Assembly: GCA_041660005.1 (NCBI GenBank)
Contig: JBAZXG010000003.1
Coordinates: 835-64,834 of the forward strand
Direction of reading: 5' to 3'
Length of the DNA: 64,000 nucleotides
From: Patescibacteria group bacterium
GTDB lineage: Bacteria > Patescibacteriota > Patescibacteriia > GWA2-46-9
A model generated the notes under the pieces. The model was given only the letters and a program-made list of their open reading frames with translations. It ran no database searches and was not told the DNA's origin. This document shows, in pieces, positions 1,486 to 51,030 of this stretch. A program made the position numbers and the translations under genes. How positions within the stretch are numbered: position 1 is the first letter of the stretch; every line of letters starts with the position of its first letter.

Positions 1486-1917
1486 ATGTTTTTAGGCGAA
1501 TACCAGCACACCGTTGATGATAAGGGCCGCATAGCGGTTCCGGTTAAGTTTCGTTCATCTCTGCAAAAAGGAGCGGTTGTTACCCGTGGTATTGATCAAT
1601 GCCTTTTTGTTTATCCTATAAAGGAGTGGGAATCTCTTGCCGCAAAGCTCGCCAGCTTACCGGTTTCGCAGGCAAATACGCGCGCTTTTGCCCGCCTTAT
1701 GCTTGCTGGAGCCATGGAAGTAAAACCAGATCGGCAAGGGAGGGTCATTTTGCCTGACTATTTGCGTAAGTATGCTGGTTTACGTCACAAGGTCGTGTTG
1801 GCGGGCCTTTATAATCGTTTAGAGCTTTGGGACAGTGAGCGTTGGGAAAGTTATCGAAAAGGGACAGAGGAGAATAGTGCGGTCATCGCCGAGGCGATGC
1901 ATGACCTCGGCGTCTAG
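1486..1917 (+). CDS. mraZ: Transcriptional regulator MraZ
   Basis: 143 aa with two MraZ/SpoVT-AbrB halves. MFLGEYQHTVDDKGRIAVP and the second DRQGRVILP motif are diagnostic. First gene of the dcw cluster. Confidence 0.93.
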   Translation: MFLGEYQHTVDDKGRIAVPVKFRSSLQKGAVVTRGIDQCLFVYPIKEWESLAAKLASLPVSQANTRAFARLMLAGAMEVKPDRQGRVILPDYLRKYAGLRHKVVLAGLYNRLELWDSERWESYRKGTEENSAVIAEAMHDLGV

Positions 1918-3188: not shown

Positions 3189-3202
3189 TTTGGTATTCGG
3201 CA

Positions 3203-4963
3203 ATGGCTGCACGATTTGGCACGCCTCCGCCGGAAAAAAGGGGATCCAACTCTGTACGACTGCGTGTTGTTAAAACAGGAGTTTTATTGGTCGTTGCGGC
3301 CATTGTCTTACGGCTTTGGCAGCTCCAGGTTATTGATCATGCGGCGTACGCACAATTATCTCTTGGACAGCAAGCAACCTATGAATTGTTGACTCCGGAG
3401 CGGGGGAAGATTTTTGCAACTCAACGCGGTGCCAGTGGTGGTGAAGAGCTTGTGCCGCTCGCCGTTAATCGAGATGCCTATTTCATTTTTGCAAACCCTC
3501 GTCTGATCGAGGATCCAAAAGCAGCGGCTGAGGCGCTCGCCGGACCGCTCAAAAAAAGTGTCGATGAATTGTTACCGCTTCTTGATAAGCCGGATGATCC
3601 CTATGCGCCGCTTCTCCATCGAGCCGGCGCAGATGTAGCCGCAGCAATACGTGCGTTGAACTTACCCGGCATACAGATGATAACGGAGCGCGAACGTTTC
3701 TACCCGAACAATAATGTCGGCAGTCATGTGTTGGGCTTTGTGAGCTACAAAGACGATAAGCTAGTCGGACAGTATGGCATTGAAGGAACATTGAATAGCA
3801 AGCTCGCTGGAACTGCGGGAAGCATTCAGTCAATCCAAAGTCCGGGTGGCGTCTGGATTACACTCGGGGATCGCGACGTCAAAGAAGCCGTTGACGGAAG
3901 CAGTGTCGTACTCACAATTGATTGGACCGTGCAATTTTATGCCTGCCGTGCGCTCGATGCTTGGGTGGCGAAGCATGGCGCTACGGGTGGCAGCGTCATT
4001 GTCATGAACCCAGCAACCGGTGCAATTATTGCTATGTGCGGCTCGCCTGATTTTAATCCGAATGTTTTTAATGAAACAGAAAAAATTACCGCGTTTAATA
4101 ATCCGGCTCTCTTTTTGAATTACGAACCAGGATCAGTGATGAAGGGTCTCACCATGGCTGCGGCCATCGACCAGCAGCGTGTGACACCAACCTCCACGTA
4201 CGTTGATACGGGTTCGGTAACGTTTGGCAGAAGTGTCATAAAAAATTCTGATAATAAAGCACACGGCGTGCAAACAATGACGCAGGTGTTGGAAGAGTCT
4301 CTGAACACCGGGGCTATTTATGCCATGCGGCAAGTAGGTCTTTCAGTGTTCAAAAAATATCTTGAGGACTTTGGTCTTGGTTCTGTAACCGGCATTGATC
4401 TCGAAGGAGAGGCGGCTGGTAACCTAAAGAGTCTTTACCAAAATAATGAAATCTACGCAGCAACGGCTTCTTTTGGGCAGGGGGTCACCGCTACGCCATT
4501 GCAAATGGTTGCTGCCTATGCGGCTATAGCCAATAATGGGAAGTTAATGCAGCCGTACCTTGTGCAAGAAGTTAAGCATCCTGATGGCTCAGTAGAAACG
4601 CACAGCAGTAAAACAGTGCGTCAGGTCATCAACCAAAGGACCTCAGCACAAATTAGCGGTATGCTTGCTCGGGTGGTTACGAACGGTCATGGTAAAAAAG
4701 CTGCGGTTCCGGGCTATGTTATCGCAGGAAAAACGGGGACGGCGCAGATTCCAAGAAAGGACGGTAAGGGGTACGAGTCTGGTTCGACTATTGGTTCATT
4801 CATTGGCTATGGACCGGTAAGTAACCCCAAGTTTGCTATGCTGGTGCGTATTGATCGCCCGCAAGACGTTCAATTTGCTGAGTCTTCGGCGGCGCCGCTA
4901 TTTGGCGATTTGGCAAAATTTATACTACAGTATTATGAAGTTCCGTTTGATAATATAAAATAA
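3203..4963 (+). CDS. ftsI: Peptidoglycan D,D-transpeptidase (class B penicillin-binding protein, FtsI/PBP2)
   Basis: 586 aa with an N-terminal TM anchor, a PBP dimerisation domain, and the transpeptidase motifs SVMK (SxxK), SDN and KTGT. Confidence 0.9.
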   Translation: MAARFGTPPPEKRGSNSVRLRVVKTGVLLVVAAIVLRLWQLQVIDHAAYAQLSLGQQATYELLTPERGKIFATQRGASGGEELVPLAVNRDAYFIFANPRLIEDPKAAAEALAGPLKKSVDELLPLLDKPDDPYAPLLHRAGADVAAAIRALNLPGIQMITERERFYPNNNVGSHVLGFVSYKDDKLVGQYGIEGTLNSKLAGTAGSIQSIQSPGGVWITLGDRDVKEAVDGSSVVLTIDWTVQFYACRALDAWVAKHGATGGSVIVMNPATGAIIAMCGSPDFNPNVFNETEKITAFNNPALFLNYEPGSVMKGLTMAAAIDQQRVTPTSTYVDTGSVTFGRSVIKNSDNKAHGVQTMTQVLEESLNTGAIYAMRQVGLSVFKKYLEDFGLGSVTGIDLEGEAAGNLKSLYQNNEIYAATASFGQGVTATPLQMVAAYAAIANNGKLMQPYLVQEVKHPDGSVETHSSKTVRQVINQRTSAQISGMLARVVTNGHGKKAAVPGYVIAGKTGTAQIPRKDGKGYESGSTIGSFIGYGPVSNPKFAMLVRIDRPQDVQFAESSAAPLFGDLAKFILQYYEVPFDNIK

Positions 4964-6402: not shown

Positions 6403-6477
6403 GCCGCGTTCGTCTAATGGTTAGGACACATGGTTCTCATCCATGAAATACGGGTTCGATTCCCGTACGCGGTACCA
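6403..6477 (+). tRNA. tRNA-Glu (anticodon CTC), CCA encoded
   Basis: Cloverleaf by hand. Acceptor GCCGCGT/ACGCGGT (G1-U72 wobble). D-arm GTCT-AATGGTTA-GGAC. Anticodon stem CATGG/CCATG with loop TTCTCAT. T-arm ACGGG-TTCGATT-CCCGT. Discriminator A followed by CCA. Confidence 0.85.
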
Positions 6478-6482
6478 AAAAA

Positions 6483-6516
6483 ATTCAGTCGCCATAACGG
6501 CGAGTGAATTTTTTTA
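6483..6516 (+). terminator. Rho-independent terminator after tRNA-Glu / dcw operon
   Basis: 11-bp stem (attcagtcgcc / ggcgagtgaat, one mismatch), 5-nt loop, then TTTTTTT. Confidence 0.6.
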
Positions 6517-6585
6517 TACTTGCGCGTATGAGGAATCGAACCCAAGGATGAATTTTTATAAATAAAATTTGATAAAAAATCGGAC

Positions 6586-7383
6586 TCAATCATTTGACTC
6601 GTCCCAGATGCACCAAAACCATGTCCGATAACTGTCCGCTAACTTTTTACTTTTTAGCACAAAGAAAACAACGTCTTCATCAATATGTCCAACGCCAACA
6701 AAACCAGTGTGCGTAATGACGTAGTCTCCAAAAATATGAATGCCCGACGCTGTTGAATATTTTTTTGGCAAATAACGGTACTTGAGTGTTGCTGGAAACT
6801 CCTTAGCAAAGTTTGGAAGTTTAATTTTTACTTCCTGGTCAAATAAATGGATGAATGTAATTTTTTTCTTTTTTGCTTCTTGAAAAAAACGTTTCCCACT
6901 TACGGTCAAACGAGGGTCAAACCAGCCGCCTTTGGCGCCAATGAAATAACTATCTTCGCCGACCCGCAACACTTCGCGCCAAATATTTTTTAGCCCTTCA
7001 AACCCACGGTAGATGTACGCTTCTTCATCGATACGGCGTTCGTGGAACTTCTTTTTCAAAGCAGGCAGAATGTCCTCGAGGCGCTGCCGTTTCTCTGTTA
7101 GAAGCTCCAAAAGTTTGTCCGGATCCACGGCATTGTAATGGGTCTCGCCTGGTGTCAGTACTTGAAAGCATAACCCTTTGTCGAGCAGTCGCCGCATAGC
7201 ATCATAGGCGTTACGACGATGGATTTTTCCAACCGTCGCAATTCTGCTGACCGTAGATTCTCCTTTATCGAGCAGCGTTTCGTATATTCGCCACTCGTTA
7301 GGAGAGAGTCCGAGTATTTTATAAATTTCTTCGCTTAGCCTTTCCATAGTTGGTCCGTTATTGTGGTGGTGTTGGCCACTCAC
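6586..7383 (-). CDS. TrmB-family transcriptional regulator (N-terminal wHTH plus TrmB C-terminal domain)
   Basis: 265 aa. The N-terminus LSPNEWRIYETLLDKGESTVSRIATVGKIHRRNAYDAMRRLLDKGL is a TrmB-type HTH, and length and layout fit the TrmB sugar-regulator family. It is the only gene clearly on the minus strand in this stretch. Confidence 0.7.
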   Translation of the reverse strand: MSGQHHHNNGPTMERLSEEIYKILGLSPNEWRIYETLLDKGESTVSRIATVGKIHRRNAYDAMRRLLDKGLCFQVLTPGETHYNAVDPDKLLELLTEKRQRLEDILPALKKKFHERRIDEEAYIYRGFEGLKNIWREVLRVGEDSYFIGAKGGWFDPRLTVSGKRFFQEAKKKKITFIHLFDQEVKIKLPNFAKEFPATLKYRYLPKKYSTASGIHIFGDYVITHTGFVGVGHIDEDVVFFVLKSKKLADSYRTWFWCIWDESND

Positions 7384-7460
7384 TGGAAACCCTATAGGGT
7401 CTGTAATGTGAAGTCAAGGATGTGCCAAGGGCTTCATATTTTGAATATGTAACAATCACT

Positions 7461-8453
7461 ATGAAAAGATGGTTGATCTCGGCTGTTGTAATTATTGTAG
7501 TAGTCGGCTTTTTCATTTTTCGACCAAAAGCGAACAACGCTCTTAAGCACGTCACTGTTGGATTTCAGTCATCACCTCCGATGGCATTGTTGATGATTGC
7601 TAAAGACAAAGGTTTTTTTGAAAAGCAGGGTTTGGATGTGGAGCTAAAAGAATTTACGGCAGGCAAGTTTGCTTTGGGGGCTTTTCTCGGTGGCTCACTT
7701 GATTTTTCGGTTTCGGCGGATGTACCCCCGCTTCTTGCGGCTTTGCAAGGAAATCAATTTGTTGTCCCAGCACAACTTGTGAAGCAAACGAAAAGTGAAG
7801 TACGAGTAGTTGCAAAAAAGGACGGAGATTTAAATGATGCAGCGGCTTACTTTAAAGCAAAAAAGCGAAAGCTTGCAACTTTAAGTGGTGGCGGCCCAGA
7901 GTTCTTTACCTACGAGTTCCTGAATAAACTAGGAATTAAGAAAGAACAAATTGAAATCATCAACCAGAAGCCGGAGGATATGGTAGCGGCGCTCATGAGC
8001 GGAAGCGTGGACGCTATCTCTATGTTTGACCCCGTGGCGTATGTGGCCGAGCAGCAAATGGGGGACAATGCCATTATTTTTACTGACGAAGCGATATACT
8101 CAGAGCTTTACGTCATTGAAGCCCCTATATCGGTAAAGACAGATTCAGCCGTTTTGGAAAAATTTCTTTTGGCGCTGAAAGATGCTGAACAGTTTCTTCA
8201 AGAAAACCCCGATGCCGTCAAAGAGGTTGTTGCGAAGTATACAAAACTCGACAGAAAAACTGTTGATGGAGTTTGGGGAAACACTAACTTTGGCTTGTCT
8301 CTCACCCCTCAACTACTTGAATATTGGAAGAGGGAAGTAGCGTGGGCAAAGGATGTTGGTAAGATAGCAAACGACGTTGAAGTGCCAAACGTTGAAAATT
8401 ATATCTACAGTGCTCCGTTAAGAAAAATTGACCCAACAGCTGTCAGTTTTTAG
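7461..8453 (+). CDS. ABC transporter substrate-binding protein, NitT/TauT (SsuA/NMT1-like) family
   Basis: Signal/TM anchor MKRWLISAVVIIVVVGFF followed by an SsuA/NMT1-like periplasmic domain. The track ORF starts at 7422, but the ATG at 7461 directly precedes the signal peptide. First gene of a three-gene ABC operon. Confidence 0.75.
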   Translation: MKRWLISAVVIIVVVGFFIFRPKANNALKHVTVGFQSSPPMALLMIAKDKGFFEKQGLDVELKEFTAGKFALGAFLGGSLDFSVSADVPPLLAALQGNQFVVPAQLVKQTKSEVRVVAKKDGDLNDAAAYFKAKKRKLATLSGGGPEFFTYEFLNKLGIKKEQIEIINQKPEDMVAALMSGSVDAISMFDPVAYVAEQQMGDNAIIFTDEAIYSELYVIEAPISVKTDSAVLEKFLLALKDAEQFLQENPDAVKEVVAKYTKLDRKTVDGVWGNTNFGLSLTPQLLEYWKREVAWAKDVGKIANDVEVPNVENYIYSAPLRKIDPTAVSF

Positions 8454-8457
8454 ACGT

Positions 8458-9213
8458 ATGAAAAAGACGCTATGGTTTATTTTACCAATTATTGCTGTCG
8501 GGCTTGCGTGGGAAGTTGTTTCCCGTAGCGGAATTGTAAATCCATCACTATTCCCTCCCGTCTCAAAAGTTTTTCTTGCCCTGTGGGAGATGGTAAATTC
8601 TGGAATCATCATTACTGACGTAGGGAACAGTTTGTGGCGTTTACTTCTTGGTTTGTTTTTCGGGTCTGTAATTGGCATCGTTTTGGGGCTTATTACAGGC
8701 AGGGTCAAAAAAGTTTCTTCCTTACTTGTGCCAATCATTCAAGCATTAAGACCGCTGCCACCTGTGGCTATTATCCCTCTTGTTATTGTCTGGCTAGGAA
8801 TAGACAACACCGCAAAGATTTTTTCCATAGCTTTTGCTGTATTTTTCCCCGTTTGGATAAACACCTACATCGGGGCACAGCAAATTCCGCAAACATTTCT
8901 CTGGAGTGCTAAGTTGCTTACTACCTCTACGCTGAAGGTATTTTATCGAGTAATCTTTCCTGCAACACTACCCTTTGCCATCGCGGGTATACGTAGCGCA
9001 ATTGCCGTTAGTTATATTATGGTTTTCGTTTCCGAGTTGGCTGGAGCTTCTAGTGGACTAGGTTATCGCATTGCCATTGCTCAATCATCGTATCGTATAG
9101 ACGAAATGATAGCCGCTCTGATTGTTCTTGGCATTCTCGGTGCTTTAACCGATTACCTATTTGTTCTTTCAACAAAAAAGATGTTTCCTTACCTTGCCCT
9201 GCGATCGCAATGA
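8458..9213 (+). CDS. ABC transporter permease (binding-protein-dependent inner membrane component, SsuC/TauC-like)
   Basis: Six predicted TM helices and an EAA-like loop (AQSSYRIDEMIAALIVLG). An ATG at 8458 avoids overlap with the upstream gene. The 3' end overlaps the ATPase gene by 4 nt (ATGA). Confidence 0.8.
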   Translation: MKKTLWFILPIIAVGLAWEVVSRSGIVNPSLFPPVSKVFLALWEMVNSGIIITDVGNSLWRLLLGLFFGSVIGIVLGLITGRVKKVSSLLVPIIQALRPLPPVAIIPLVIVWLGIDNTAKIFSIAFAVFFPVWINTYIGAQQIPQTFLWSAKLLTTSTLKVFYRVIFPATLPFAIAGIRSAIAVSYIMVFVSELAGASSGLGYRIAIAQSSYRIDEMIAALIVLGILGALTDYLFVLSTKKMFPYLALRSQ

Positions 9214-9908
9214 AGCAAATTGAAGTAAAAAAGTTGTCAGTATCTTACGGTAACTTTGGCGTGCTCTGCGATATTGATTTTACGGTCGAGAAAGGGGAGT
9301 TTATCGTAATCGTTGGAAAATCGGGAAGTGGTAAGACGACCTTTCTTCACGCACTGGCAGATCTCATCCCGTTCTCTGGGGAGATTGATATTCCTGAAAA
9401 TAAAGGGGTTGTGTTTCAACACTACGCAGTTTTTCCGTGGCTGACCGTTTCAGAAAATATTGCCTTTGGACTTGACCGGTATTCAGAGGAAAAGCAACGG
9501 GAAGTTACTAGTGAACATTTAAGAATCGCTCAACTGGAAGGGAAAGACGATAGTTATCCTGCGGAGCTTTCAGGTGGTCAAGTGCAACGTGTTGCTTTGG
9601 CTCGTTCTTTGGCACACAGTCCAGAGCTTTTATTGATGGACGAACCGTATGGGTCACTGGATGCGTATACAAGAGACCAAATGCAAGAATGGCTTTTAGG
9701 TGTGTGGTCGGAGCATAAAAAAACAATCGTTTTTGTGACCCACAGTATTGAAGAAGCGATTTTTCTTGCAGACAGAATTTTGGTACTTAGCAACAAACAT
9801 TTTATTGAGGAACTCAAAGTTCCTTTTGGTAGACCAAGAAAAGAGGAAATAAAGTTTACGCCAGAATTTAATCAGCTACGAAAAAATATTTTTGAGTCCA
9901 TTAGTTAA
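9210..9908 (+). CDS. ABC transporter ATP-binding protein (NitT/TauT family)
   Basis: Walker A GKSGSGKTT, signature LSGGQVQRVALAR, Walker B LLLMDEP, H-loop VTHS. Confidence 0.9.
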   Translation: MKQIEVKKLSVSYGNFGVLCDIDFTVEKGEFIVIVGKSGSGKTTFLHALADLIPFSGEIDIPENKGVVFQHYAVFPWLTVSENIAFGLDRYSEEKQREVTSEHLRIAQLEGKDDSYPAELSGGQVQRVALARSLAHSPELLLMDEPYGSLDAYTRDQMQEWLLGVWSEHKKTIVFVTHSIEEAIFLADRILVLSNKHFIEELKVPFGRPRKEEIKFTPEFNQLRKNIFESIS

Positions 9909-10126
9909 ACGGTAGTAGTCGCTAGTTCATGGATGCTAGTCACCCGAAGAATTCTTTTCATACTACGTTGTTGACTTTATCTTTATTTTGAAACAAGATG
10001 CGGTTCATAGGAGGTATTCGAACGGTTTCAATAGACCGCATAGTAATCGTTTCGTGGCAAAAACATGGAATAAAGTAGCTAACTGTTTGCTGCTTATTCC
10101 CAACCGGTCAAAGAGGTACATTCGTC

Positions 10127-10648
10127 ATGGTAAACAGTCGTCTTTCCTTTCGTGACTTGGGACAGCCCGAGTTGGAGTTGGTGATCGGGGAGCACCACGG
10201 TGTGTTCGAGCTCCAGGCAGAACACAAAGGTCTGCGCTTCGTGGTAGACCTCACGAAGCGTGGAAGTCGGTGGCCCCACGCAGGGGACGTGTGGAAACTG
10301 CAGCCACTCTATTCTCCGCATGGTTCACGCGTCGTCTTCTGTGAACCACGCGAACTCATAAGGGAGCGAGTTCGTCCGCCTTACTTCGACGTTGCGCGTT
10401 TGGGCGCGCCTACCGTGGAGCTTCAGGAGACAATACACAAGAGGAAGCCTCAGCTCCATGCTCCGTACCAGAGACTCTTCAAGCTTGTGGTCGATCTGGA
10501 ATGGTGGGACGGAGAAACACCACAGGCGGGGCAAATCTGGATTCTCAAACCGCTGAGAACTCCGGATGGGTATCTCATTTTTTCCGAACCTGTTCGGCAC
10601 GTTGATCCTGACACTGTCGACAGCTTCGCCGAACGCGACAGGTGGTAG
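10127..10648 (+). CDS. Hypothetical protein with internal tandem duplication, encoded in a GC-rich segment
   Basis: 173 aa. Two homologous halves: LRFVVDLTKRGSRWPHAGDVWKLQPLYSPHGSRVVFCEP and FKLVVDLEWWDGETPQAGQIWILKPLRTPDGYLIFSEP. GC content is visibly higher than in flanking genes. No family recognised. Confidence 0.5.
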   Translation: MVNSRLSFRDLGQPELELVIGEHHGVFELQAEHKGLRFVVDLTKRGSRWPHAGDVWKLQPLYSPHGSRVVFCEPRELIRERVRPPYFDVARLGAPTVELQETIHKRKPQLHAPYQRLFKLVVDLEWWDGETPQAGQIWILKPLRTPDGYLIFSEPVRHVDPDTVDSFAERDRW

Positions 10649-10750
10649 CAGTTACGCCGCTCGAATAGGCTCGTGCCCTGTAAGTGAGTAGTCCTTCCAG
10701 GATGTATTCTGCGAGCTCAATCTAGAGCTCCTTACATCCACGTTTCTTTC

Positions 10751-10795
10751 GGCGCCGCCCAGGTTCTCCACCCGGGCGGCGTCTTCACTTTTGTT
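10751..10795 (+). terminator. Putative rho-independent terminator (GC stem cgccgccc/gggcggcg, 13-nt loop, T-rich tail)
   Basis: 8-9 bp GC stem at 10753-10781 followed by tcttcacttttgttatt, about 100 nt after the stop of 10127..10648. Confidence 0.4.
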
Positions 10796-11313
10796 ATTCG
10801 TCCTTGGACGCGTGATTAAGATTTAGTATCATAGTTCAAACTATGGTACTGACAGTTATTCTGTAAGAACTCAAGTAACTTCTCGGCCTATATGGGCGAG
10901 CGGAAATCAAAAGTCAAAAGGCAAAACTGCAAATCAAAAATTAAAAACTGTGCACAAACACCGCAGACTTCGCTTTCACTACCTACGCCGATCCTAAGGG
11001 ATTTGCATTGTAATCTTTCAAACCCCCTCATTGATCGGGAGAATGAATGCGCTCTCGGCTAAACCCCTGGTGTCCGGTCGTGGCAATGAGGGCGAAAGCA
11101 GGACGAATAAATTCAAGAGCATGTTTGAGCCGAATTATTAAAGTGAGGCGAGTTTGCTCTTGCTCGTCCTGCTGAGGAAGGAATGCCCGACCGGAGCACC
11201 CGGGGTGTCGTTCTTTTGGTGACTTTTCTTAGACAAGTAAGAAAAGTCACAACCTACAGCCCCGTCAGACGGGGCGAGGTTTATTGGGCCTAGGGTTTTA
11301 ATCCTTACTTACC

Positions 11314-11342
11314 TTGCTACGTAACATATTACGTAGCATAAT
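11314..11342 (+). promoter_or_regulatory. Promoter TTGCTA -17 nt- CATAAT with embedded 24-bp palindromic operator (tgctacgtaaca|tattacgtagca, 11315-11338)
   Basis: -35 and -10 hexamers with a 17-nt spacer, about 28 nt upstream of the nuclease start codon. A near-perfect inverted repeat (1 mismatch in 24) spans the -35, the spacer and the first base of the -10. Confidence 0.45.
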
Positions 11343-11369
11343 GGTTCTACAAATCATTTAAACAAAACC

Positions 11370-12122
11370 ATGTCCGATTATTACAAAGCAAACAGAACGA
11401 GAAATATTTACGATCCTAAGAGTAAGGAGCCGTTTAAATTATCTCGTTCAAAAATCGAAAATTTTTCATCGTGTAAGAAGTGTTTTTACCTTGACCGCCG
11501 ACTGGGTGTGGGACAGCCGTCGGGCTACCCATTAAATTTAAATATCGCGGTCGATACACTTCTCAAAAAAGAGTTCGACATTCACCGCGCAAAACAAAAA
11601 ACGCATCCGCTCATGAAAGCGTATGGGCTGAAAGCCGTACCCTTTGCTCACAAGATGATTAATGAGTGGAGAGAGAATTTTAAGGGTGTGCAGTTTCATC
11701 ATGAGCCGACGAATTTCATTATTTCGGGAGCGGTCGACGATCTCTGGCAAGATGAAAACGGTGAAATTATTGTGGTCGACTATAAGGCCACCAGTAAAAG
11801 TTCTCAGGTTAACCTCGACGCTGCTTGGCAAGACGGGTACAAAAGGCAAATGGAAATATATCAATGGCTACTTCGGAATAATGGTTTGAAAGTGTCGGAC
11901 ACGGGCTATTTTGTGTACTGCAACGGAAAGACAGATGCAGAAGCTTTTGACGCAAAGCTAGAGTTTGACATTGATTTATTGCCCTACACCGGCGACGACT
12001 CTTGGGTTGAAACGCGACTGCATGAAATTAAAAAATGCCTTGACGGAAACATGCCAGACGCAAACCCCAACTGCGATTATTGTAATTATAGAAAAGCAGT
12101 AAGTGAGGTTGATAATAAATAG
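11370..12122 (+). CDS. PD-(D/E)xK superfamily nuclease, Cas4/RecB-like, with N- and C-terminal CxxC pairs (putative Fe-S cluster)
   Basis: 250 aa. Catalytic core ...DDLWQDENGEIIVVDYKAT... (D...E-x-K arrangement). Four cysteines arranged as C-KK-C near the N-terminus and C-DY-C near the C-terminus, as in Cas4/AddB-type nucleases. No CRISPR array or other cas genes in the window. Confidence 0.65.
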   Translation: MSDYYKANRTRNIYDPKSKEPFKLSRSKIENFSSCKKCFYLDRRLGVGQPSGYPLNLNIAVDTLLKKEFDIHRAKQKTHPLMKAYGLKAVPFAHKMINEWRENFKGVQFHHEPTNFIISGAVDDLWQDENGEIIVVDYKATSKSSQVNLDAAWQDGYKRQMEIYQWLLRNNGLKVSDTGYFVYCNGKTDAEAFDAKLEFDIDLLPYTGDDSWVETRLHEIKKCLDGNMPDANPNCDYCNYRKAVSEVDNK

Positions 12123-12535: not shown

Positions 12536-13324
12536 TTGAAATTGAGTACCTGTATGTTTTTACCAAGCTTTATTTTCTTGATCGTTATCGTTGTGTTGCT
12601 TGTACTCTCGCGTCTTATCAGCCGGACGCTTTTTAAACTTTTGGGTGAAGGATGGTATATAGTACTTCTCTGGCCCGGCGTCATTGTTCATGAGGGGTCG
12701 CATTTTCTCGGCGCACTGCTTACCTTCACTCCTGTCCGAGGTTTTTCGCTATTGCCCGAAACTGGAGGGTCAGGGTCTCGCGTGCTCGGAGTTGTGCGTC
12801 ACGATCGTCCGAAAAACCCTTTTGCGTCCGTGATAATTTCAGGATTTCCATTAATTGGCGGAACTGTTGCCATTTGGTTATTAACTGTCTTTTTACTTCC
12901 CGGGCTATCATCGTCAATATTGACATCGGAATGGCAGGGTGGAGGGTATAGTAATCTTTTGAATTCTTTTCGTTTTTTAATAAAACGTGGATCGGAAGTT
13001 ATTTCTTTCGGGAGTTGGCAAACTTGGCTATTCCTTTATTTAAGTTTCACCATTAGTGCCCACTTGGCTCCTTCAAGCCATGATCTGAAGTACGTAGCAA
13101 AAGGTCTTATTGGTCTTGTTGTAATACTCGGTGCTCTCTACTGGCTCGCCAGTTTTATAAAAACATCAATGACCCACAATGTTCTCGTATGGCTCGTCGC
13201 GCACATAAATGAGGGTATCTCTAAAATTTTATTTGCTTTTCTTTACCTGGCTTTCATTTCAATCGTCGTCACTGTTGTGTCGCTACTTCTGCTGTCTATT
13301 AAAAAACGTCTTCGTCGTTATTAA
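12536..13324 (+). CDS. Integral membrane protein with HExxH zinc-metalloprotease motif (M50/M56/DUF3267-like zincin)
   Basis: 262 aa, about 6 TM segments. HEGSH motif at the end of TM2 (VIVHEGSHFLGALL). TTG start at 12536, alternative ATG at 12554. Confidence 0.55.
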   Translation: MKLSTCMFLPSFIFLIVIVVLLVLSRLISRTLFKLLGEGWYIVLLWPGVIVHEGSHFLGALLTFTPVRGFSLLPETGGSGSRVLGVVRHDRPKNPFASVIISGFPLIGGTVAIWLLTVFLLPGLSSSILTSEWQGGGYSNLLNSFRFLIKRGSEVISFGSWQTWLFLYLSFTISAHLAPSSHDLKYVAKGLIGLVVILGALYWLASFIKTSMTHNVLVWLVAHINEGISKILFAFLYLAFISIVVTVVSLLLLSIKKRLRRY

Positions 13325-44073: not shown

Positions 44074-47000
44074 ATGGCCGTGCGCCAGCGTCGAGCTGTT
44101 CCTAATTCTAGAAGTAAAAAGATACATCGAGATAAATTTTCGGTGTCGTTTCGTATTCAGGCAGCTGTCCTTGGAGTAGTGATATTACTGGGCGTACTGG
44201 TAAACAACATTAAATTCGGAGAGAGCGCACAGTCAACTTTTCAGCAGACAAGCTGGACGGGTCAATCGAAGGGAACCACTGAAGTCACTACTTCCCCATG
44301 GGTTGATTTTTCAACTACTGATGCTAGTGACGCTAATATCGACAGAACGTCTGGTCTTCGGTTGAAATATACCTCCTCGTCGCAGTCGGTAACAACAAAA
44401 GCCGCCTTTGATGCTGCAAGTCCTTTGTACACCAAAACGAAATCAGTAAGCGGTTCAGGAGACGATGGCTCAGTGCAGCTTGACGGTGATGCCGCATGGG
44501 TGCCGCTAAGTACGCAGTCAAGTTTGGGCGCTCTTACTAATGGCAGTGTTCTGGCGGCCGATGGTTCGCGCTACCTTTACGCAGTCGTAGGAGGCGCAAA
44601 AACTTTATACCGTTTTGACACGACAGCAGCGTCACCCAGTTGGACGTCACTTGGTAACTATCCTTTTACCGATGTTTCAAACCAAGGAGCAGCCATGGTG
44701 TATGCAAATAATGCTTTGTATTTAAACAATGGCACTGGTAAAGGCATCTACCGCTATACCATTAACGCTAACGGTTCTGGATCGTGGAGTACGCTCGGGG
44801 CTGTGAAAGATGCTTATTATAATTTTGGCGCCGGTGGGGGACTAGTATGGAATGGCGGTAATTATATCTACCACGTAAGTGGTTATTATGCTGGCCCTTC
44901 TTTTGAAGTTTATTCAATTAGTGCGAACACCTGGACAAAACTTAGTAATTCTCCTGTGGGTGTGGCTGATGGAAGTGCTTTTGCTTATGATACGGTTTCG
45001 CAGGCGCTCTACCTCGGTATAGGCGGCACCGCTTCTATTTATCGGTTTAAACCTGTAAATCCGAATAGTCCCGCCTTGAGTGATAGTTGGCAGCAGACGG
45101 TTTACGCAAGCCTACCAGTCACGCTAGGTCTCGGGTCTTTATTTATATCCGGACCGTCTGGGTCAATTTATGCACTGACCGGCGGATCAGCAGGAAACTT
45201 TCTTAAAAGTGCTTCCAATGGGTCGTCGTGGGCAACAATTGTTCCTGCGCTTGGCGCTATGGCAAAGGGTGCTGGCGGAATCTATATAGCGAACAGTGGT
45301 CGATTTTATGCCTTTAGGGGCGGAGCTGCGGAATTAGATACCTGGAAGGCAATGCCTATAGCGCCGGCATTCGGTACCTACGAATCTGGTGCGATAGACT
45401 TTAGTGCAGCGCGACGGTTCACGAGCGTTCAGTTGGATAGCGATATTCCGTCCGGTACTTCAATGACGCTCGAGGTGCAAGCGCGACAGACTGCTACGAG
45501 TGCCTGGAGTGCTTGGTCACCCATTACAATCACGAGTAACAGTGGTTCACTCAGCGCCAGCGATTATCAGGGAGTTCAGTACCTGAAGTTTCGCATAACG
45601 TTAAGAACAAATAGCTCTACTGTGACACCGAAACTGCGCGGTATTACATTTAGCTACGCTAACTATGCTACGAGTACCTACCTTGATTCGTCACCCTATA
45701 AAATGGGTACTACTGCTCAAGGTCCCGCCATTGTACAGCTCAAGTGGAGAGAAATTATCCCCGCAGCGTCAAACACTACGGTGAGATTACAGTTAAGGAC
45801 CAGGAGTACAAAAGATTTTACCGATGGGGTGAGTGGTGATAAATGGTATGGTTCTGGAAACACCGAAGGAGAGGTATTTACGGCGAGTAATAGTGGATGC
45901 ACGAGAACACCGGTGAGTGGAAATGAATATGAAGTAAGCTGTAATGTGAATGCTACGAGTCCGCTTAATAATTCCAGTACGTCGTACGTTCAGTATAGAG
46001 TTAAATTAGATTCACCTGATGCAAACGCAACTCCAACCGTAACCAGCGTATCCGTTGTTTATGATATCAATGCTTCGCCTGTTGTCAGTAATGTTACTGT
46101 CGTCGGACAGGATGCATCTGGTCTTGCGACATTTACCTATAAAGTCATTGACAACGATGCAGCGGATTCGAATTTTGCTGTTGGGCTCTATTATGATCTT
46201 GGTATTCGTTTGCCCTCAAGTATTGGCAGCGGCGTTGGTTCAATCACTGTCTCTGTTCCTGGCACTGCACAGCTTTCCGCATTGCTACCCCCCGATGGAG
46301 TACTGCTCATTGAGAACGAGCAGATTCTGTATCGTACGATTTCCGGAAATCAGTTCGTCATAGATACAGCGTCTGATCGTGGTGCTTTCCAAACAATTGC
46401 AACAGCGCACAACCCCGGGGGAACACCATTGACGGTCTGGATTCGAGCTACTGATTCTGAAGTTGGTAATAAGTTCAATGTCCAATCGTATGTAAATGGT
46501 GACGTAGGTAGTAGTGTCAGCTGCACGAGCAAATTCACTCCTTGTTCAAAAACGATTACTTGGCGCCCGGCTTTGGATCTTACCGCCAAGGTTTATTTGT
46601 CTGGTCAAAATATTAAAGTTGCTGCTAATGACAAGCATGCAGTTAATAGCGTTGGCGGCGCAGCTTTGGTGTCGCCAGCAACGTTTACGCTGGACACTAT
46701 AGCTCCACAGCTCTCAGCTACGCCAATGAGAATTGTCGGTAGTGCGGTTGCTGGGACAACAACGGGGTTAAAATCATCTACAAAAAGTGTTGCCTTAGCG
46801 ATCGAGTCTCCAAACGTGACTGGTGACAATCCATTGTCTAGCACAAAGTATTCAGTGTGTGACGAAGTGACTGGAAGCGGGACGTGCGGCACATTTTCAG
46901 TGGATGCATCTGGAGGAGTACCATCCGGATGGTTAGCGTTGAGTTCGTTTAGCAACTTAACTTCATGTCCTGCATTATCTCCAACGCTTCCACCTTTAGG

Positions 47001-50000
47001 TAGTGGTGTTAGCTGTTCTTCATTTGTGCTTGCTGGTGCAGGAGAGCGCACTGTTCAATTCGCTGCAGTGGACAACGTTGGTAATAGTAAGCGTGGAAGT
47101 GCGGACATCATTGTTGATCAAACGCCGCCGGTAACACCAGCCAACTTTTCTGCACAGGATGCTTCGAACCAGACAGTTGGAGCTCTCGTTTACCTGCGAT
47201 GGGATGCGCTTACTCCAGCGAGCGTTACCGACGCATCAGGAAACGGAGATTTTGCTCAGTACCTTATTTATAGAAACAATAGGGCAGACGCTAGTTCAGG
47301 GTGCAGTTCCTCAGCAACAACTTTTTGTTTGCTGACAAAGGTAACGAATATCGTGACCGGAACTTTTGCCGATTCAGACGTGGCTGCTGCAACGAGCTAT
47401 CAGTATAAAATTATTGCTGAAGACAATATTGGGAACGATTCGTCAACGCTTAGTAGTGCAACACCGACTTCAGCCGTAACACCGACGCCTGCCGGACAGG
47501 CCGTCGCGCCGACCCCACAAATAACCAATGTCGTTCTTGGTACGCCTGATACAAGTTCAGTCAAGGTTAGTTGGGATACAACAAATTCTGTTAGCGACGC
47601 ATCCGTTATTTACGCTGGTACAGCAAGCGCACCTGTTAGTTTTTCCGGTTATCCCTCTCAGGGTGACCCTACGGTTACCGATACGCATACGGTTACTCTT
47701 GTTGGACTGTCGGCCGATACAACCTATTATTTACAGCTTCGTTCTGTTGCACCCGGAAACGATACACCGGGGACCTATCCAGGCGCCGGACAGCCGGACT
47801 TAATGTTTAAAACAAAACCATTACCGCTCGTAGAGCGCCCAACCATTACTCCGGGATCTCCCTTGGTGTCACCAAATGAGACAAGTGCGGTGTTCAAGTG
47901 GACGACCGGAAGTAGCGAGTCAGCTTCTGATTCTTTTGTTGAATACGGCTTGAATTCGGCCCTTGGTTCTTACTATGGGACTCGGGCAACAGGTGTGGTT
48001 CACGACGTAATTGTTCCCGCGTTAACATCGGCAACAAAATATTTCTTCCGTGTGCGCTCAGCTATTCCGGGTGGCGGCGAAAAAGCGTACCCGACAACTG
48101 CACCGGATCCAGAAATGACGCCGCTTGATTTTACGACACTGCAACCGACGAACGATACAACCGCTCCAGAGCCGACCAATATACAGGTTCCTTCTCAGTC
48201 AGTTAGCGATACAACCGCAATTGTCACTTGGCACACCTTGGAACCGGCGGTGCCTTTTGTTGAATTTTGGCGAGTAGACGATCCAACAACGCACCGGGTA
48301 CTACCGTCGACTCCCGGGGACGAAACATCCAGTGCTAGTATTCTTTTGTCCAGTCTTGATCCAGATACAGAGTATCAGTTCATTGCCATTTCAAGAGATG
48401 CTGCGGGTAATTCTGGCAGGTCCGCGGTTCAGCCGTCATTCAGAACCAGCAAAGATCCACGCTATACTTCTGATCCAGTCATTACGACGATTCACAACGA
48501 TCCTGCAGGTGTCTCTACCGTTACTATCTACTTCAACACTGACCAGGCGACCACTGCCGTTGTTCGTTACTCTTCAGATACTGATCCAACACCATACTCT
48601 CGGTCGCAAAGTTTTCCGTCGTTTGTTGAGGGGGAGCATGCAGTCACACTTCTTGGATTAACTTCAGGGACACCGTACGTTTATAAGGTTGAGACAACGA
48701 ACCCAAGCGGTGGCAATGCTTCTAGTAGCAACTGTAGCGGTGTAAGTGACAGCTGTAGTTTTGCGACTAACATAGCACAAGGTGAGCTGCCGGACATCAT
48801 TGTTCCGTCTATCAGAGTAACGAAAGATGCGGACAAGGCAAATCTTGTCACTATCTCGTGGGAAACAAGTCAGGCGGGAAATTCGCTTGTTGAGTTTGGT
48901 CAAGACGCCGTTGACGGAGTGCCGCAATACGGCAGAACGTTTGGGTTTGTGCGCGACAGCGCCACTATTCACTCTGTTACCTTGCCGAATGACCTACTAG
49001 AGGGTCAAACTTATTACTTCCGTCTACGGACCGAGGATAGAGCTGGCCAGTTAGCAGTATTTCCAGTGACTGCCGATCTCACTGATACGTCATGTAATAA
49101 CCCAAATCCTGCCGCTAGTACTTGTAAAAACCCGACGTTTAGCACAGTCGACACTGGACTTGTCCAGATCGGTGAAAAAATTAGTCCGCCAGTCATTACC
49201 GGAGTTGCCCCGCTACTTGTCACAAATACGAAAGTCGTTATTGGATGGACAACGGATAAACCAGCGACTTCTGAAGTCTTTCTTGGCACTTCAACACTTT
49301 TTGCATCAGACCCAACAGCGTCAGACGACACACTGACAACAGTGCACGCAGTAACCATTGACGGCTTGCAGTCAAGTACGCCATATTATTTCGCTATCGC
49401 TTCAGTTGATAGAAATAAACAACGGCAATCGGATGACAATAAGGGAGAGGCGTACACTTTTACAACAAATGCGGGGACTAAAATTGGCGATAATCAGGGT
49501 CAACAAGGGGTACAGGGTGTTGTGAAAACAGATCTTTTGCCACCGGTGATCTCGGGTATTAGCGTTACTGGTATTACAGATTTTGGAGCCACTATAACCT
49601 GGGTAACCAATGAACATGCGACATCGCTCGTGCAATATGGCGAAGATACTACCTACGGTTCAATTTTTGGGGATTCAGCGAATCTGACTTCTGAGCATTC
49701 TGTAACGTTGGTCGGCCTTACTGGCGGCACACAATATCATTTCTCGATTATCGCCTATGACGGAGACGGGAACCGCGCATTTAGTTCTGACGATACTTTT
49801 ACAACAACCGGGGAGCCGGGCAAAAAAGAGGAGACCGATACAGAGAAAACCGACAAAAATAAAACTGACAAAGAGCAGAATACAGAAAAAACCAATGATA
49901 CTGAAAATGCAGACACATTGACGGCTATTGAAAAAACGATTCGTGAGCTGAGCCAGGATAAGCAATTGTCATTGCAAAAAATTATCGAACTACTAAAAGA

Positions 50001-51030
50001 CTTTGACGAAACAGATGCCTCGAAGATTCTTGACACCGTCGGTCTACAAATGGTTGCACCACCGCAATTTGTTGGTGGTGCTCCTCGGGTAACGGTAACC
50101 ACTGATTCCGCGACCATTCACTGGACGACAGATAAACCGTCGGACAGTCGTATCGCTTTTGCTAGCGATCTCGATTATGCGCCAACGGCAAGTGATCCCT
50201 ATGGAATAGAAATAGGGGACACTGAAACATATATAAGGGACCATGAAATCGTCATTTCAAATTTAACGCCCAATACGGTCTATCATTATCAGGTGCGTTC
50301 TCGGGAGCGTGTCGGTAGATCAGCGCGTTCCATCGATAGGACTTTTAAAACATTAGCGCTGCAACCGGAAATCAAAAAATTAGCAGTAGGTAAAGTGACA
50401 GAGAATAGTATTACCTTAACCTGGCGAACAAATGTTCCTGTCAAATCAGTAATTAGTTATACAAATAAAACCACCAAAGAAGAACTTTCTCAGGGGAATC
50501 CTCAGTTTTTAACCTTACACAGTTTCGAATTGAAGAATTTGAACGGGGACACTCTCTATACTATGCGGGTTGTTGTTGAAGATGAATCTGGTTTAACGTC
50601 TACGTCGGAGGTAATAAGTGCAAGAACCACCAAGGATGAAAAGCCTCCCGTCATTGATCAAGTACGAACCGAGGTGAGCTTGGCAGGCGAAGAGGGAAGT
50701 TTTGCGCAAGCTATTGTTTCATGGAAAACCGACGAACCATCTGCATCGCAGATTGCCTTCGAAGAAGGGATTACAAAATCGGATACACTCGCCAATAGTA
50801 CGGAGTTACTGTCGGAGCTTTCTTTAAGCCATGTCATGGTACTGGGTAAGTTGCGCCCGGCGACAGTCTATCGTTTCCGGGTTCTTGGTAGCGACTCGTC
50901 TGGTAATAAAGCTGCGTCGCGTGACTACACTTTACTAACACCTCAAAGGAAGCAGTCGGTTTTGGGAATCATCATTAATAATTTTGAGCAGACCTTTGGG
51001 TTCTTGCGTTTCCTTGGGTGGTCGCCGTAA
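44074..51030 (+). CDS. Giant cell-surface protein (2318 aa): signal anchor, Kelch-like beta-propeller, about 10 PAP_N/FN3-like repeats, K/E/T-rich acidic linker, C-terminal hydrophobic segment
   Basis: Single uninterrupted 6.96-kb ORF. The N-terminal TM is VLGVVILLGVLV. Six Kelch-like blades each contain Y-x-[YA]-x-[GR]-G (YLYAVVGG, YIYHVSGY, LYLGIGG, IYALTGG, FYAFRGG). The repeat signature V-x-[IV]-x-W-x-T-x3-[AS]-x-S-x-V-x-[YF]-G recurs about 10 times. Low-complexity linker ...KKEETDTEKTDKNKTDKEQNTEKTND.... The 3' end overlaps the following ABC ATPase gene by 13 nt. Confidence 0.85.
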   Translation: MAVRQRRAVPNSRSKKIHRDKFSVSFRIQAAVLGVVILLGVLVNNIKFGESAQSTFQQTSWTGQSKGTTEVTTSPWVDFSTTDASDANIDRTSGLRLKYTSSSQSVTTKAAFDAASPLYTKTKSVSGSGDDGSVQLDGDAAWVPLSTQSSLGALTNGSVLAADGSRYLYAVVGGAKTLYRFDTTAASPSWTSLGNYPFTDVSNQGAAMVYANNALYLNNGTGKGIYRYTINANGSGSWSTLGAVKDAYYNFGAGGGLVWNGGNYIYHVSGYYAGPSFEVYSISANTWTKLSNSPVGVADGSAFAYDTVSQALYLGIGGTASIYRFKPVNPNSPALSDSWQQTVYASLPVTLGLGSLFISGPSGSIYALTGGSAGNFLKSASNGSSWATIVPALGAMAKGAGGIYIANSGRFYAFRGGAAELDTWKAMPIAPAFGTYESGAIDFSAARRFTSVQLDSDIPSGTSMTLEVQARQTATSAWSAWSPITITSNSGSLSASDYQGVQYLKFRITLRTNSSTVTPKLRGITFSYANYATSTYLDSSPYKMGTTAQGPAIVQLKWREIIPAASNTTVRLQLRTRSTKDFTDGVSGDKWYGSGNTEGEVFTASNSGCTRTPVSGNEYEVSCNVNATSPLNNSSTSYVQYRVKLDSPDANATPTVTSVSVVYDINASPVVSNVTVVGQDASGLATFTYKVIDNDAADSNFAVGLYYDLGIRLPSSIGSGVGSITVSVPGTAQLSALLPPDGVLLIENEQILYRTISGNQFVIDTASDRGAFQTIATAHNPGGTPLTVWIRATDSEVGNKFNVQSYVNGDVGSSVSCTSKFTPCSKTITWRPALDLTAKVYLSGQNIKVAANDKHAVNSVGGAALVSPATFTLDTIAPQLSATPMRIVGSAVAGTTTGLKSSTKSVALAIESPNVTGDNPLSSTKYSVCDEVTGSGTCGTFSVDASGGVPSGWLALSSFSNLTSCPALSPTLPPLGSGVSCSSFVLAGAGERTVQFAAVDNVGNSKRGSADIIVDQTPPVTPANFSAQDASNQTVGALVYLRWDALTPASVTDASGNGDFAQYLIYRNNRADASSGCSSSATTFCLLTKVTNIVTGTFADSDVAAATSYQYKIIAEDNIGNDSSTLSSATPTSAVTPTPAGQAVAPTPQITNVVLGTPDTSSVKVSWDTTNSVSDASVIYAGTASAPVSFSGYPSQGDPTVTDTHTVTLVGLSADTTYYLQLRSVAPGNDTPGTYPGAGQPDLMFKTKPLPLVERPTITPGSPLVSPNETSAVFKWTTGSSESASDSFVEYGLNSALGSYYGTRATGVVHDVIVPALTSATKYFFRVRSAIPGGGEKAYPTTAPDPEMTPLDFTTLQPTNDTTAPEPTNIQVPSQSVSDTTAIVTWHTLEPAVPFVEFWRVDDPTTHRVLPSTPGDETSSASILLSSLDPDTEYQFIAISRDAAGNSGRSAVQPSFRTSKDPRYTSDPVITTIHNDPAGVSTVTIYFNTDQATTAVVRYSSDTDPTPYSRSQSFPSFVEGEHAVTLLGLTSGTPYVYKVETTNPSGGNASSSNCSGVSDSCSFATNIAQGELPDIIVPSIRVTKDADKANLVTISWETSQAGNSLVEFGQDAVDGVPQYGRTFGFVRDSATIHSVTLPNDLLEGQTYYFRLRTEDRAGQLAVFPVTADLTDTSCNNPNPAASTCKNPTFSTVDTGLVQIGEKISPPVITGVAPLLVTNTKVVIGWTTDKPATSEVFLGTSTLFASDPTASDDTLTTVHAVTIDGLQSSTPYYFAIASVDRNKQRQSDDNKGEAYTFTTNAGTKIGDNQGQQGVQGVVKTDLLPPVISGISVTGITDFGATITWVTNEHATSLVQYGEDTTYGSIFGDSANLTSEHSVTLVGLTGGTQYHFSIIAYDGDGNRAFSSDDTFTTTGEPGKKEETDTEKTDKNKTDKEQNTEKTNDTENADTLTAIEKTIRELSQDKQLSLQKIIELLKDFDETDASKILDTVGLQMVAPPQFVGGAPRVTVTTDSATIHWTTDKPSDSRIAFASDLDYAPTASDPYGIEIGDTETYIRDHEIVISNLTPNTVYHYQVRSRERVGRSARSIDRTFKTLALQPEIKKLAVGKVTENSITLTWRTNVPVKSVISYTNKTTKEELSQGNPQFLTLHSFELKNLNGDTLYTMRVVVEDESGLTSTSEVISARTTKDEKPPVIDQVRTEVSLAGEEGSFAQAIVSWKTDEPSASQIAFEEGITKSDTLANSTELLSELSLSHVMVLGKLRPATVYRFRVLGSDSSGNKAASRDYTLLTPQRKQSVLGIIINNFEQTFGFLRFLGWSP

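Follow-up and report, generated by a model that had tools for sequence, protein, structure and literature searches.

A rare, compositionally atypical Patescibacteria gene encoding tandem copies of a domain with a predicted OB-type fold

A 173-aa ORF in a 64,000-nt stretch of a Patescibacteria genome (hereafter the window) was found to be a genuine protein-coding gene, the product of which contains two diverged copies of a domain that is unclassified in any database and represents a new sequence family. Modelling of the first copy predicts an OB-type beta-barrel, the shape of which comes nearest to those of TRAM and S1 domains. The reading that best accounts for these results is that the gene was acquired by horizontal transfer, is lineage-restricted and specifies a tandem OB-like protein that would bind single-stranded nucleic acid; taken as a whole, this reading is assigned a probability of about 0.45. 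Within this reading, a real gene encoding tandem OB-like domains is very likely, and specific binding of nucleic acid, which is suggested by analogy, is tentative. Coordinates of the gene, its parts and its surroundings are collected in Table 1.

Coding status and internal duplication

The ORF had been described in an earlier note as encoding two alignable halves of roughly 60 residues, and that description stands; the frame is intact with an ATG start, and the translation contains the peptides quoted for the two halves. Aligned locally (BLOSUM62, gaps 11/1), the halves reached a best score of 90 against 25.1 +/- 4.7 for shuffled halves (z=13.8; 0 of 2000 shuffles reached this score), while shuffling of the whole protein with an optimised split point gave a maximum of 44. 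Residues 9–75 and 90–157 align with 39 % identity and 26 invariant columns (MAFFT). The domain is approximately 65–70 residues long and has the signature LGxPE-L--GEHxG--QLQA----VVD-(10)-PxAGExWxLxPL-xPxG--vFxEP. A repeat scan of the window did not detect the duplication as a DNA repeat. Nucleotide identity between the halves at the three codon positions was 0.47, 0.68 and 0.29, with different codons behind 17 of the 26 identical residues common to both; this pattern indicates an old duplication maintained by protein-level selection. The window ORF was also compared with P0002, a relative encoded at the locus L002, and gave codon-position identities of 0.55, 0.62 and 0.26, with different codons at 24 of 33 identical residues. 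When reading frames were compared between these two sequences, the sense frame scored 147 and the best antisense frame, which shares the wobble position, scored 115; in the window, stop codons break up this antisense frame and leave no ORF longer than 54 aa in it. The two proteins also have an N-terminal 'MxNS' in common.

A reading in which no protein is made, and the ORF arises by chance within a GC-rich structured RNA or non-coding island, draws on the NCBI annotation of a 53-aa fragment only, on the highly structured adjacent intergenic region and on the frequency with which RNA genes form the GC-rich islands of AT-richer genomes. This reading is effectively refuted. The ORF region shows no more folding than shuffled sequences do (z=-1.9) and has no match in Rfam; in the internal repeat and among the homologues, it is the amino-acid sequence that is conserved, and third positions vary freely. 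In addition, a stop-free frame of 189 codons has a chance probability of ~7e-4 at this composition by our own estimate, and the fold predicted by AF2 is a confident one. Coding status is therefore regarded as settled by the intact ORF, the codon-position pattern both between the halves and against P0002, the unremarkable RNA fold without an Rfam match, and the presence of a Shine–Dalgarno (SD)-like element and a downstream hairpin. The 173-aa reading is correct and the NCBI call is truncated, because the N-terminal domain is conserved; the NCBI fragment and the 173-aa product, as called by JGI and Logan, fall into one 90 % cluster.

The leader of the gene has a counterpart at L002 (~3197-3217), where the same 8-mer, TTCCCAAC, is followed by the SD sequence GGAGGA in place of the AAGAGG of the window. 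An SD-like tetramer at positions -20 to -4 was present in only 4 of 49 window ORFs, so the source genome seems to be largely SD-independent, and the gene seems to have a leader of its own that looks foreign. Between 9909 and 10126, a search for sigma70-like promoters gave nothing. Downstream, the GC-rich hairpin with a T-rich tail is the probable transcription terminator of the gene. Its stem is also present in the RNA fold of the region; the T-run is interrupted, and a strict terminator scan did not call the element.

With a maximum KD19 hydropathy of 0.38 and neither a transmembrane segment nor a signal-like N-terminus, the window protein is, by its sequence, soluble and cytoplasmic. Its pI of 6.7 is near neutral. 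Charged residues conserved in the domain are E16/H17 (within GEHxG), D35 and E/D48 (alignment A3). An invariant Trp and a Phe are kept throughout the domain family, and K/R residues occupy alternating positions of strand b4, which follows the invariant Trp, where they are interleaved with core residues (four-row alignment).

Table 1. Features of the gene and of the surrounding region (window coordinates)
Feature	Coordinates	Strand	Remarks
mraZ	1486-1917		MraZ, ~150 aa
8-mer TTCCCAAC	10097-10104	+	5' of the window SD; also 5' of the SD of P0002 in L002
SD-like AAGAGG	10111-10116	+	10 nt 5' of the ATG; read from the sequence
173-aa ORF	10127-10648	+	Complete CDS including stop; ATG start; sole stop-free frame across the region
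Domain copy 1	10145-10357 (residues 7-77; repeat core 10151-10351)	+	Alignments A1 and A3; AF2; Foldseek OB-fold matches
Domain copy 2	10376-10606 (residues 84-160; repeat core 10394-10597)	+	39 % identical to copy 1; full-length domain-HMM match
53-aa NCBI product MFA5954393.1 / WC817_02570 (P0001)	10487-10648	+	GTG start inside domain 2; shortened call of the same gene
Intergenic region	10649-11369		720 bp
ORF 3' flank	10649-11035		Structured, z=-5.4; several discrete hairpins
Hairpin with T-rich tail (probable terminator)	10753-10800 (arms 10753-10764, 10770-10781)	+	Inverted repeat I13; 92 % complementary; 5-nt loop
AT-rich stem	10823-10852		13 bp; overlaps promoter-like hexamers at 10805-10832 (+) and 10855-10828 (-)
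Structured block	11036-11275	+	~50 % GC between flanks of 33-40 % GC
Rod-like hairpin	11036-11220		~185 nt; central bubble of roughly 11/11 nt
Perfect hairpin	11219-11250		13 bp; 3' of the rod-like hairpin
Terminator-like stem	11259-11275		3' of the rod-like hairpin
PD-(D/E)XK nuclease gene	11370-12122	+	PF12705, E=4e-15; C-terminal Cys cluster CDYCNYRK
Multi-pass membrane protein gene	12536-13324	+	262 aa; HEGSH (HExxH-type) motif; no Pfam match
Giant ORF	44074-51030	+	Single ORF of 2318 aa

Rarity, relatives and atypical composition

The earlier note could assign no family to the protein, and the searches agree. Pfam, NCBIfam, PHROG and PADLOC returned no family for the window protein at E<=10, none of the four domain sequences matched Pfam at the same threshold, and neither the protein nor the domain profile had a match among PDB sequences at E<=10. 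An exhaustive HMMER search over 1.84 billion cluster representatives gave three matches only: the 53-aa fragment of the same gene from a Patescibacteria MAG (P0001), a 76-aa single-domain protein (P0002, E=5.7e-9) and a 181-aa protein with the domain at its N-terminus (P0003, E=2.7e-4). These are the three known members among ~15 billion proteins. In a word-indexed search of 5.8 billion proteins, the window protein as query had no match, the domain profile retrieved P0002 and P0001 only, and P0003 retrieved only itself. Pattern and tblastn scans of viral contigs, JGI metagenome contigs and GTDB genomes found no relatives, nor did tblastn against phage and plasmid records. The window also encodes MraZ, an internally duplicated AbrB-like protein that resembles the 173-aa product in having two tandem, small, beta-rich repeats. 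A MraZ/AbrB-like identity of the ORF was rejected: the BLASTP alignment had E=0.43 over 7 residues, and the MraZ of the window matches PF02381 at 1e-40 where the ORF matches nothing. A MraZ-type swapped-hairpin barrel was likewise dropped, the Foldseek matches being OB and not AbrB-like domains.

The two distinct relatives are strongly basic (pI 9.8 for P0002 and 11.1 for P0003), and no neighbouring gene is common to the three loci. The C-terminal half of P0003 has no detectable relation to the domain, and the proposal of a second domain there was abandoned. Directly 3' of the P0002 stop, at L002 3465-3587 (+), lies an out-of-frame relic (SNQTGETWQLQPLRLSPSGLIVFCAP...) of the C-terminal half of another copy, with the sequence TGETWQLQPLRLSPSGLIVFCAP and a domain-HMM E value of 6e-7. 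This suggests that L002 formerly had a second domain copy that is now decaying. The segment L002 3452-3730 is strongly structured (z=-7.7) and contains two strong terminator-like hairpins. A 76-aa ORF upstream of P0002 had been considered as a homologue of the C-terminal tail of the window protein, but this homology did not hold up. In the window, an ABC ATPase is encoded upstream of the gene; its relatives share <=69 % identity with it, and both the window ORF and the downstream nuclease are absent from all 80 loci of these relatives that were examined.

The GC content and codon usage of the ORF had been noted earlier as higher than those of its neighbours, and quantification agrees. Its GC content is 0.56, compared with 0.458 +/- 0.024 for the 48 other window ORFs (z=4.3), and its GC3 is 0.61, compared with 0.426 +/- 0.030 for the 48 other long window ORFs (z=6.3). 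The codon-usage score is the lowest, and thus the least host-like, among 49 window ORFs. At a resolution of 100 nt, a GC-rich block extends from ~10100 to 10800 between flanks of 32–41 % GC. In its own genome, P0002 is likewise encoded within a GC3-rich islet (0.66 versus ~0.5), so that GC is atypical at both loci for which DNA was at hand, the window and L002. On the basis of this shared atypical composition, the window gene was probably acquired horizontally; the presence of an SD, which window ORFs rarely have, was also counted toward a foreign origin. No donor lineage was found. An actinobacterial source, raised as an example in the earlier note, is not supported: none of the three relatives points that way, and the only named one comes from a Patescibacteria MAG. 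The window contains no transposase, integrase or flanking repeats that delimit an element, and matches as short as the candidate repeats D2 and I8 are expected by chance.

Predicted fold and candidate function

Structure prediction, which the earlier note had proposed, was unusable for the full-length single sequence (AF2 pLDDT 34) but succeeded for domain 1. For the latter, a four-row alignment (A3) was built from both internal repeats, P0002 and the P0003 domain, so that two of its rows come from the window protein itself; AF2 then gave a pLDDT of 92.1 and a pTM of 0.79, with the five models ranging from 88 to 92. Inclusion of a protein's own repeat, with which pLDDT went from 34 to 92, may help with other orphan repeat proteins. 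The domain 1 model is an all-beta barrel of five/six strands (9–17, 20–27, 30–34, 49–56 and 63–69), in line with the beta-rich character suggested earlier. The strands follow the OB order b1-b2-b3-(helix/loop)-b4-b5, with a loop and a helical turn between b3 and b4.

Foldseek gave no match to the PDB at E<=1e-3 for this model. The top 50 PDB matches are nearly all OB domains, as are the BFVD matches to a large extent. All of these matches are weak (E >= 0.0047, TM about 0.45–0.64, sequence identity 4–18 %) and therefore indicate a fold class and no family. They include the TRAM domain of RlmCD (PDB 5zq0_A; E=0.017, prob 0.97), MMP0076/TRAM0076 (PDB 1yvc; TMq/TMt 0.59/0.59, rmsd 3.2) and MJ1198 (PDB 2k52; TM 0.51/0.50). 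S1-domain matches comprise Rpb7, NusA, eIF2alpha, poxvirus K3L and ribosomal protein S1, and further OB matches are the ExoVII OB domain, RuvA domain I, the anticodon-binding domains of Asp- and Lys-tRNA synthetases, IF1A and HIN.

Stand-alone TRAM proteins have been shown experimentally to be RNA chaperones with an OB fold (PMC6705878, PMC5572242), and RNA unfolding by TRAM0076 requires the surface residues Phe39, Phe42, Phe63, Phe65, Arg35 and Lys62 (PMC6705878). The archaeal stand-alone proteins and the RlmCD TRAM domain are, like the predicted domain, all-beta OB-type barrels of ~70 aa, and the single-domain P0002 falls into their size class. However, neither the window protein nor its domains match Pfam, including TRAM (PF01938), at E<=10, identity in the structural alignments is 10–14 %, and the GEHxG / VVD / PxAGExWxLxP motif is unrelated to the TRAM set of Phe, Arg and Lys residues (PMC6705878). 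The window protein also differs from TRAM proteins in being a tandem of two domains and in not being basic. S1 domains share the predicted barrel topology, account for many of the top PDB and BFVD matches and often occur in tandem within one chain, as in the window protein. Against an S1 assignment, there is no Pfam match to PF00575 at E<=10, the Foldseek E values are 0.005–0.4 and the S1 signature residues are not recognisable.

In the preferred reading, the gene would be expressed from its own ribosome-binding site and probably end at its own terminator, and its product would form two tandem OB-type barrels in one soluble cytoplasmic chain. The analogy with stand-alone TRAM, S1 and cold-shock proteins suggests that it may bind single-stranded nucleic acid, RNA being likelier than DNA, and the tandem copies would provide two binding surfaces per chain. 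It would then act as an accessory factor and not in a housekeeping role. The suggestion of single-stranded nucleic-acid binding is drawn from the OB-like shape, the TRAM analogy, the conserved Trp/Phe and K/R residues and the two basic relatives. The near-neutral pI of the window protein counts against an RNA chaperone, as typical RNA chaperones differ from it in this respect. The most conserved polar residues form an acidic/His set (GEHxG, VVD, AGE/D), which could point equally to a metal or other ligand, and no conserved neighbour hints at a function across the three loci.

Among the alternatives, an unlikely one is that the gene is a drifting passenger without a current function, a still-intact remnant of a small GC-rich mobile cassette. 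The family numbers only three members among ~15 billion proteins, synteny is not conserved and GC is atypical in the window and at L002; moreover, the second domain of L002 is mostly lost, leaving an out-of-frame relic, and no relationship is detectable for the C-terminal half of P0003. Against drift, the halves and the orthologues carry a codon-position signature in which the third position is free to vary, and the conserved core has a fold predicted at pLDDT 92, which together indicate long purifying selection; in the window the ORF, SD and terminator-like hairpin are all intact, and there is no transposase, integrase or delimiting repeat. Somewhat less probable again is an OB-like barrel whose ligand is not nucleic acid but, for instance, a metal, small molecule or oligosaccharide bound at the acidic/His cluster (GEHxG hairpin, VVD, AGE/D). 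OB folds also bind oligosaccharides and metals, the window protein is not basic, and the conserved positions E16/H17, D35 and E/D48 differ from the aromatic/basic pairs that S1, CSD and TRAM domains typically have. The structural neighbours, however, are overwhelmingly nucleic-acid binders, P0002 and P0003 are strongly basic, and no transporter or enzyme partner is conserved. The earlier proposal of a ligand-binding module is compatible with an OB fold, but in the broadest sense only.

The other function proposed in the earlier note, that of an immunity module, is less favoured still. Here the tandem beta domains would serve as an immunity protein, antitoxin or inhibitor that neutralises a toxin or a protein of an invading element. 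Like many immunity genes, this one is small and rare and has a foreign composition, and a PD-(D/E)XK/Cas4-like nuclease is encoded downstream. This nuclease gene, however, lies 720 bp away, beyond the terminator-like hairpin and a structured non-coding block, and is missing from the other two loci, no neighbour being common to any of the three. There was no PADLOC or PHROG match at E<=10 and no relative in the phage, plasmid and viral collections, and the Foldseek matches are nucleic-acid-binding OB domains and not known immunity folds. The proposal is not supported.

If the predicted fold is right, the domain adds a new sequence family to a very common fold, so far represented at three loci of candidate-phyla-radiation-type genomes. 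Orphan, unannotated small proteins are abundant in Patescibacteria genomes. The finding opens no long-standing question, and its biological weight depends on the function of the protein. A more specific reading, which is improbable as a combination, extends the preferred one: the GEHxG/VVD/PxAGExW domain would be the founding member of a Patescibacteria-restricted, OB-like RNA-binding family; its vehicle would be a tiny GC-rich cassette equipped with an SD leader and a terminator; and in the source genome it would act with the adjacent structured RNA (~11036-11275), perhaps as an RNA chaperone or RNP partner dedicated to it.

Downstream non-coding region and the rest of the window

The intergenic region that follows the gene is unusually long and strongly structured (z=-5.4 and -7.2 for its two structured parts). 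The more distal block folds with z=-7.2 (+ strand) and -7.7 (- strand) and has only chance-level matches in Rfam at E<=10; no sequence like it is present in the rest of the window, among the 80 related loci or at L002. It may be an uncharacterised small RNA, and its architecture recalls that of 6S RNA. Since it is not conserved next to P0002, this block was kept apart from the gene. An independent assembly, Logan contig L001 (SRR18595301), corresponds to window 6419-11087 and is 100 % identical over 4669 bp. Its end, at 11087, falls within the 5' arm of the rod-like hairpin, and an assembly artefact due to the inverted repeat may account for the break.

The window as a whole is a normal chromosomal stretch, with mraZ, rsmH, PBP and Mur ligase genes, tRNAs, RNase P RNA, hrcA, grpE and others. 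The downstream nuclease also has a weak Cas4-like match just under the gathering score; no CRISPR or cas context was seen near its gene. The product of the following membrane-protein gene may, from its sequence motif, be an unclassified membrane metalloprotease. Giant proteins often occur in Patescibacteria, and the window contains one very large ORF (Table 1).
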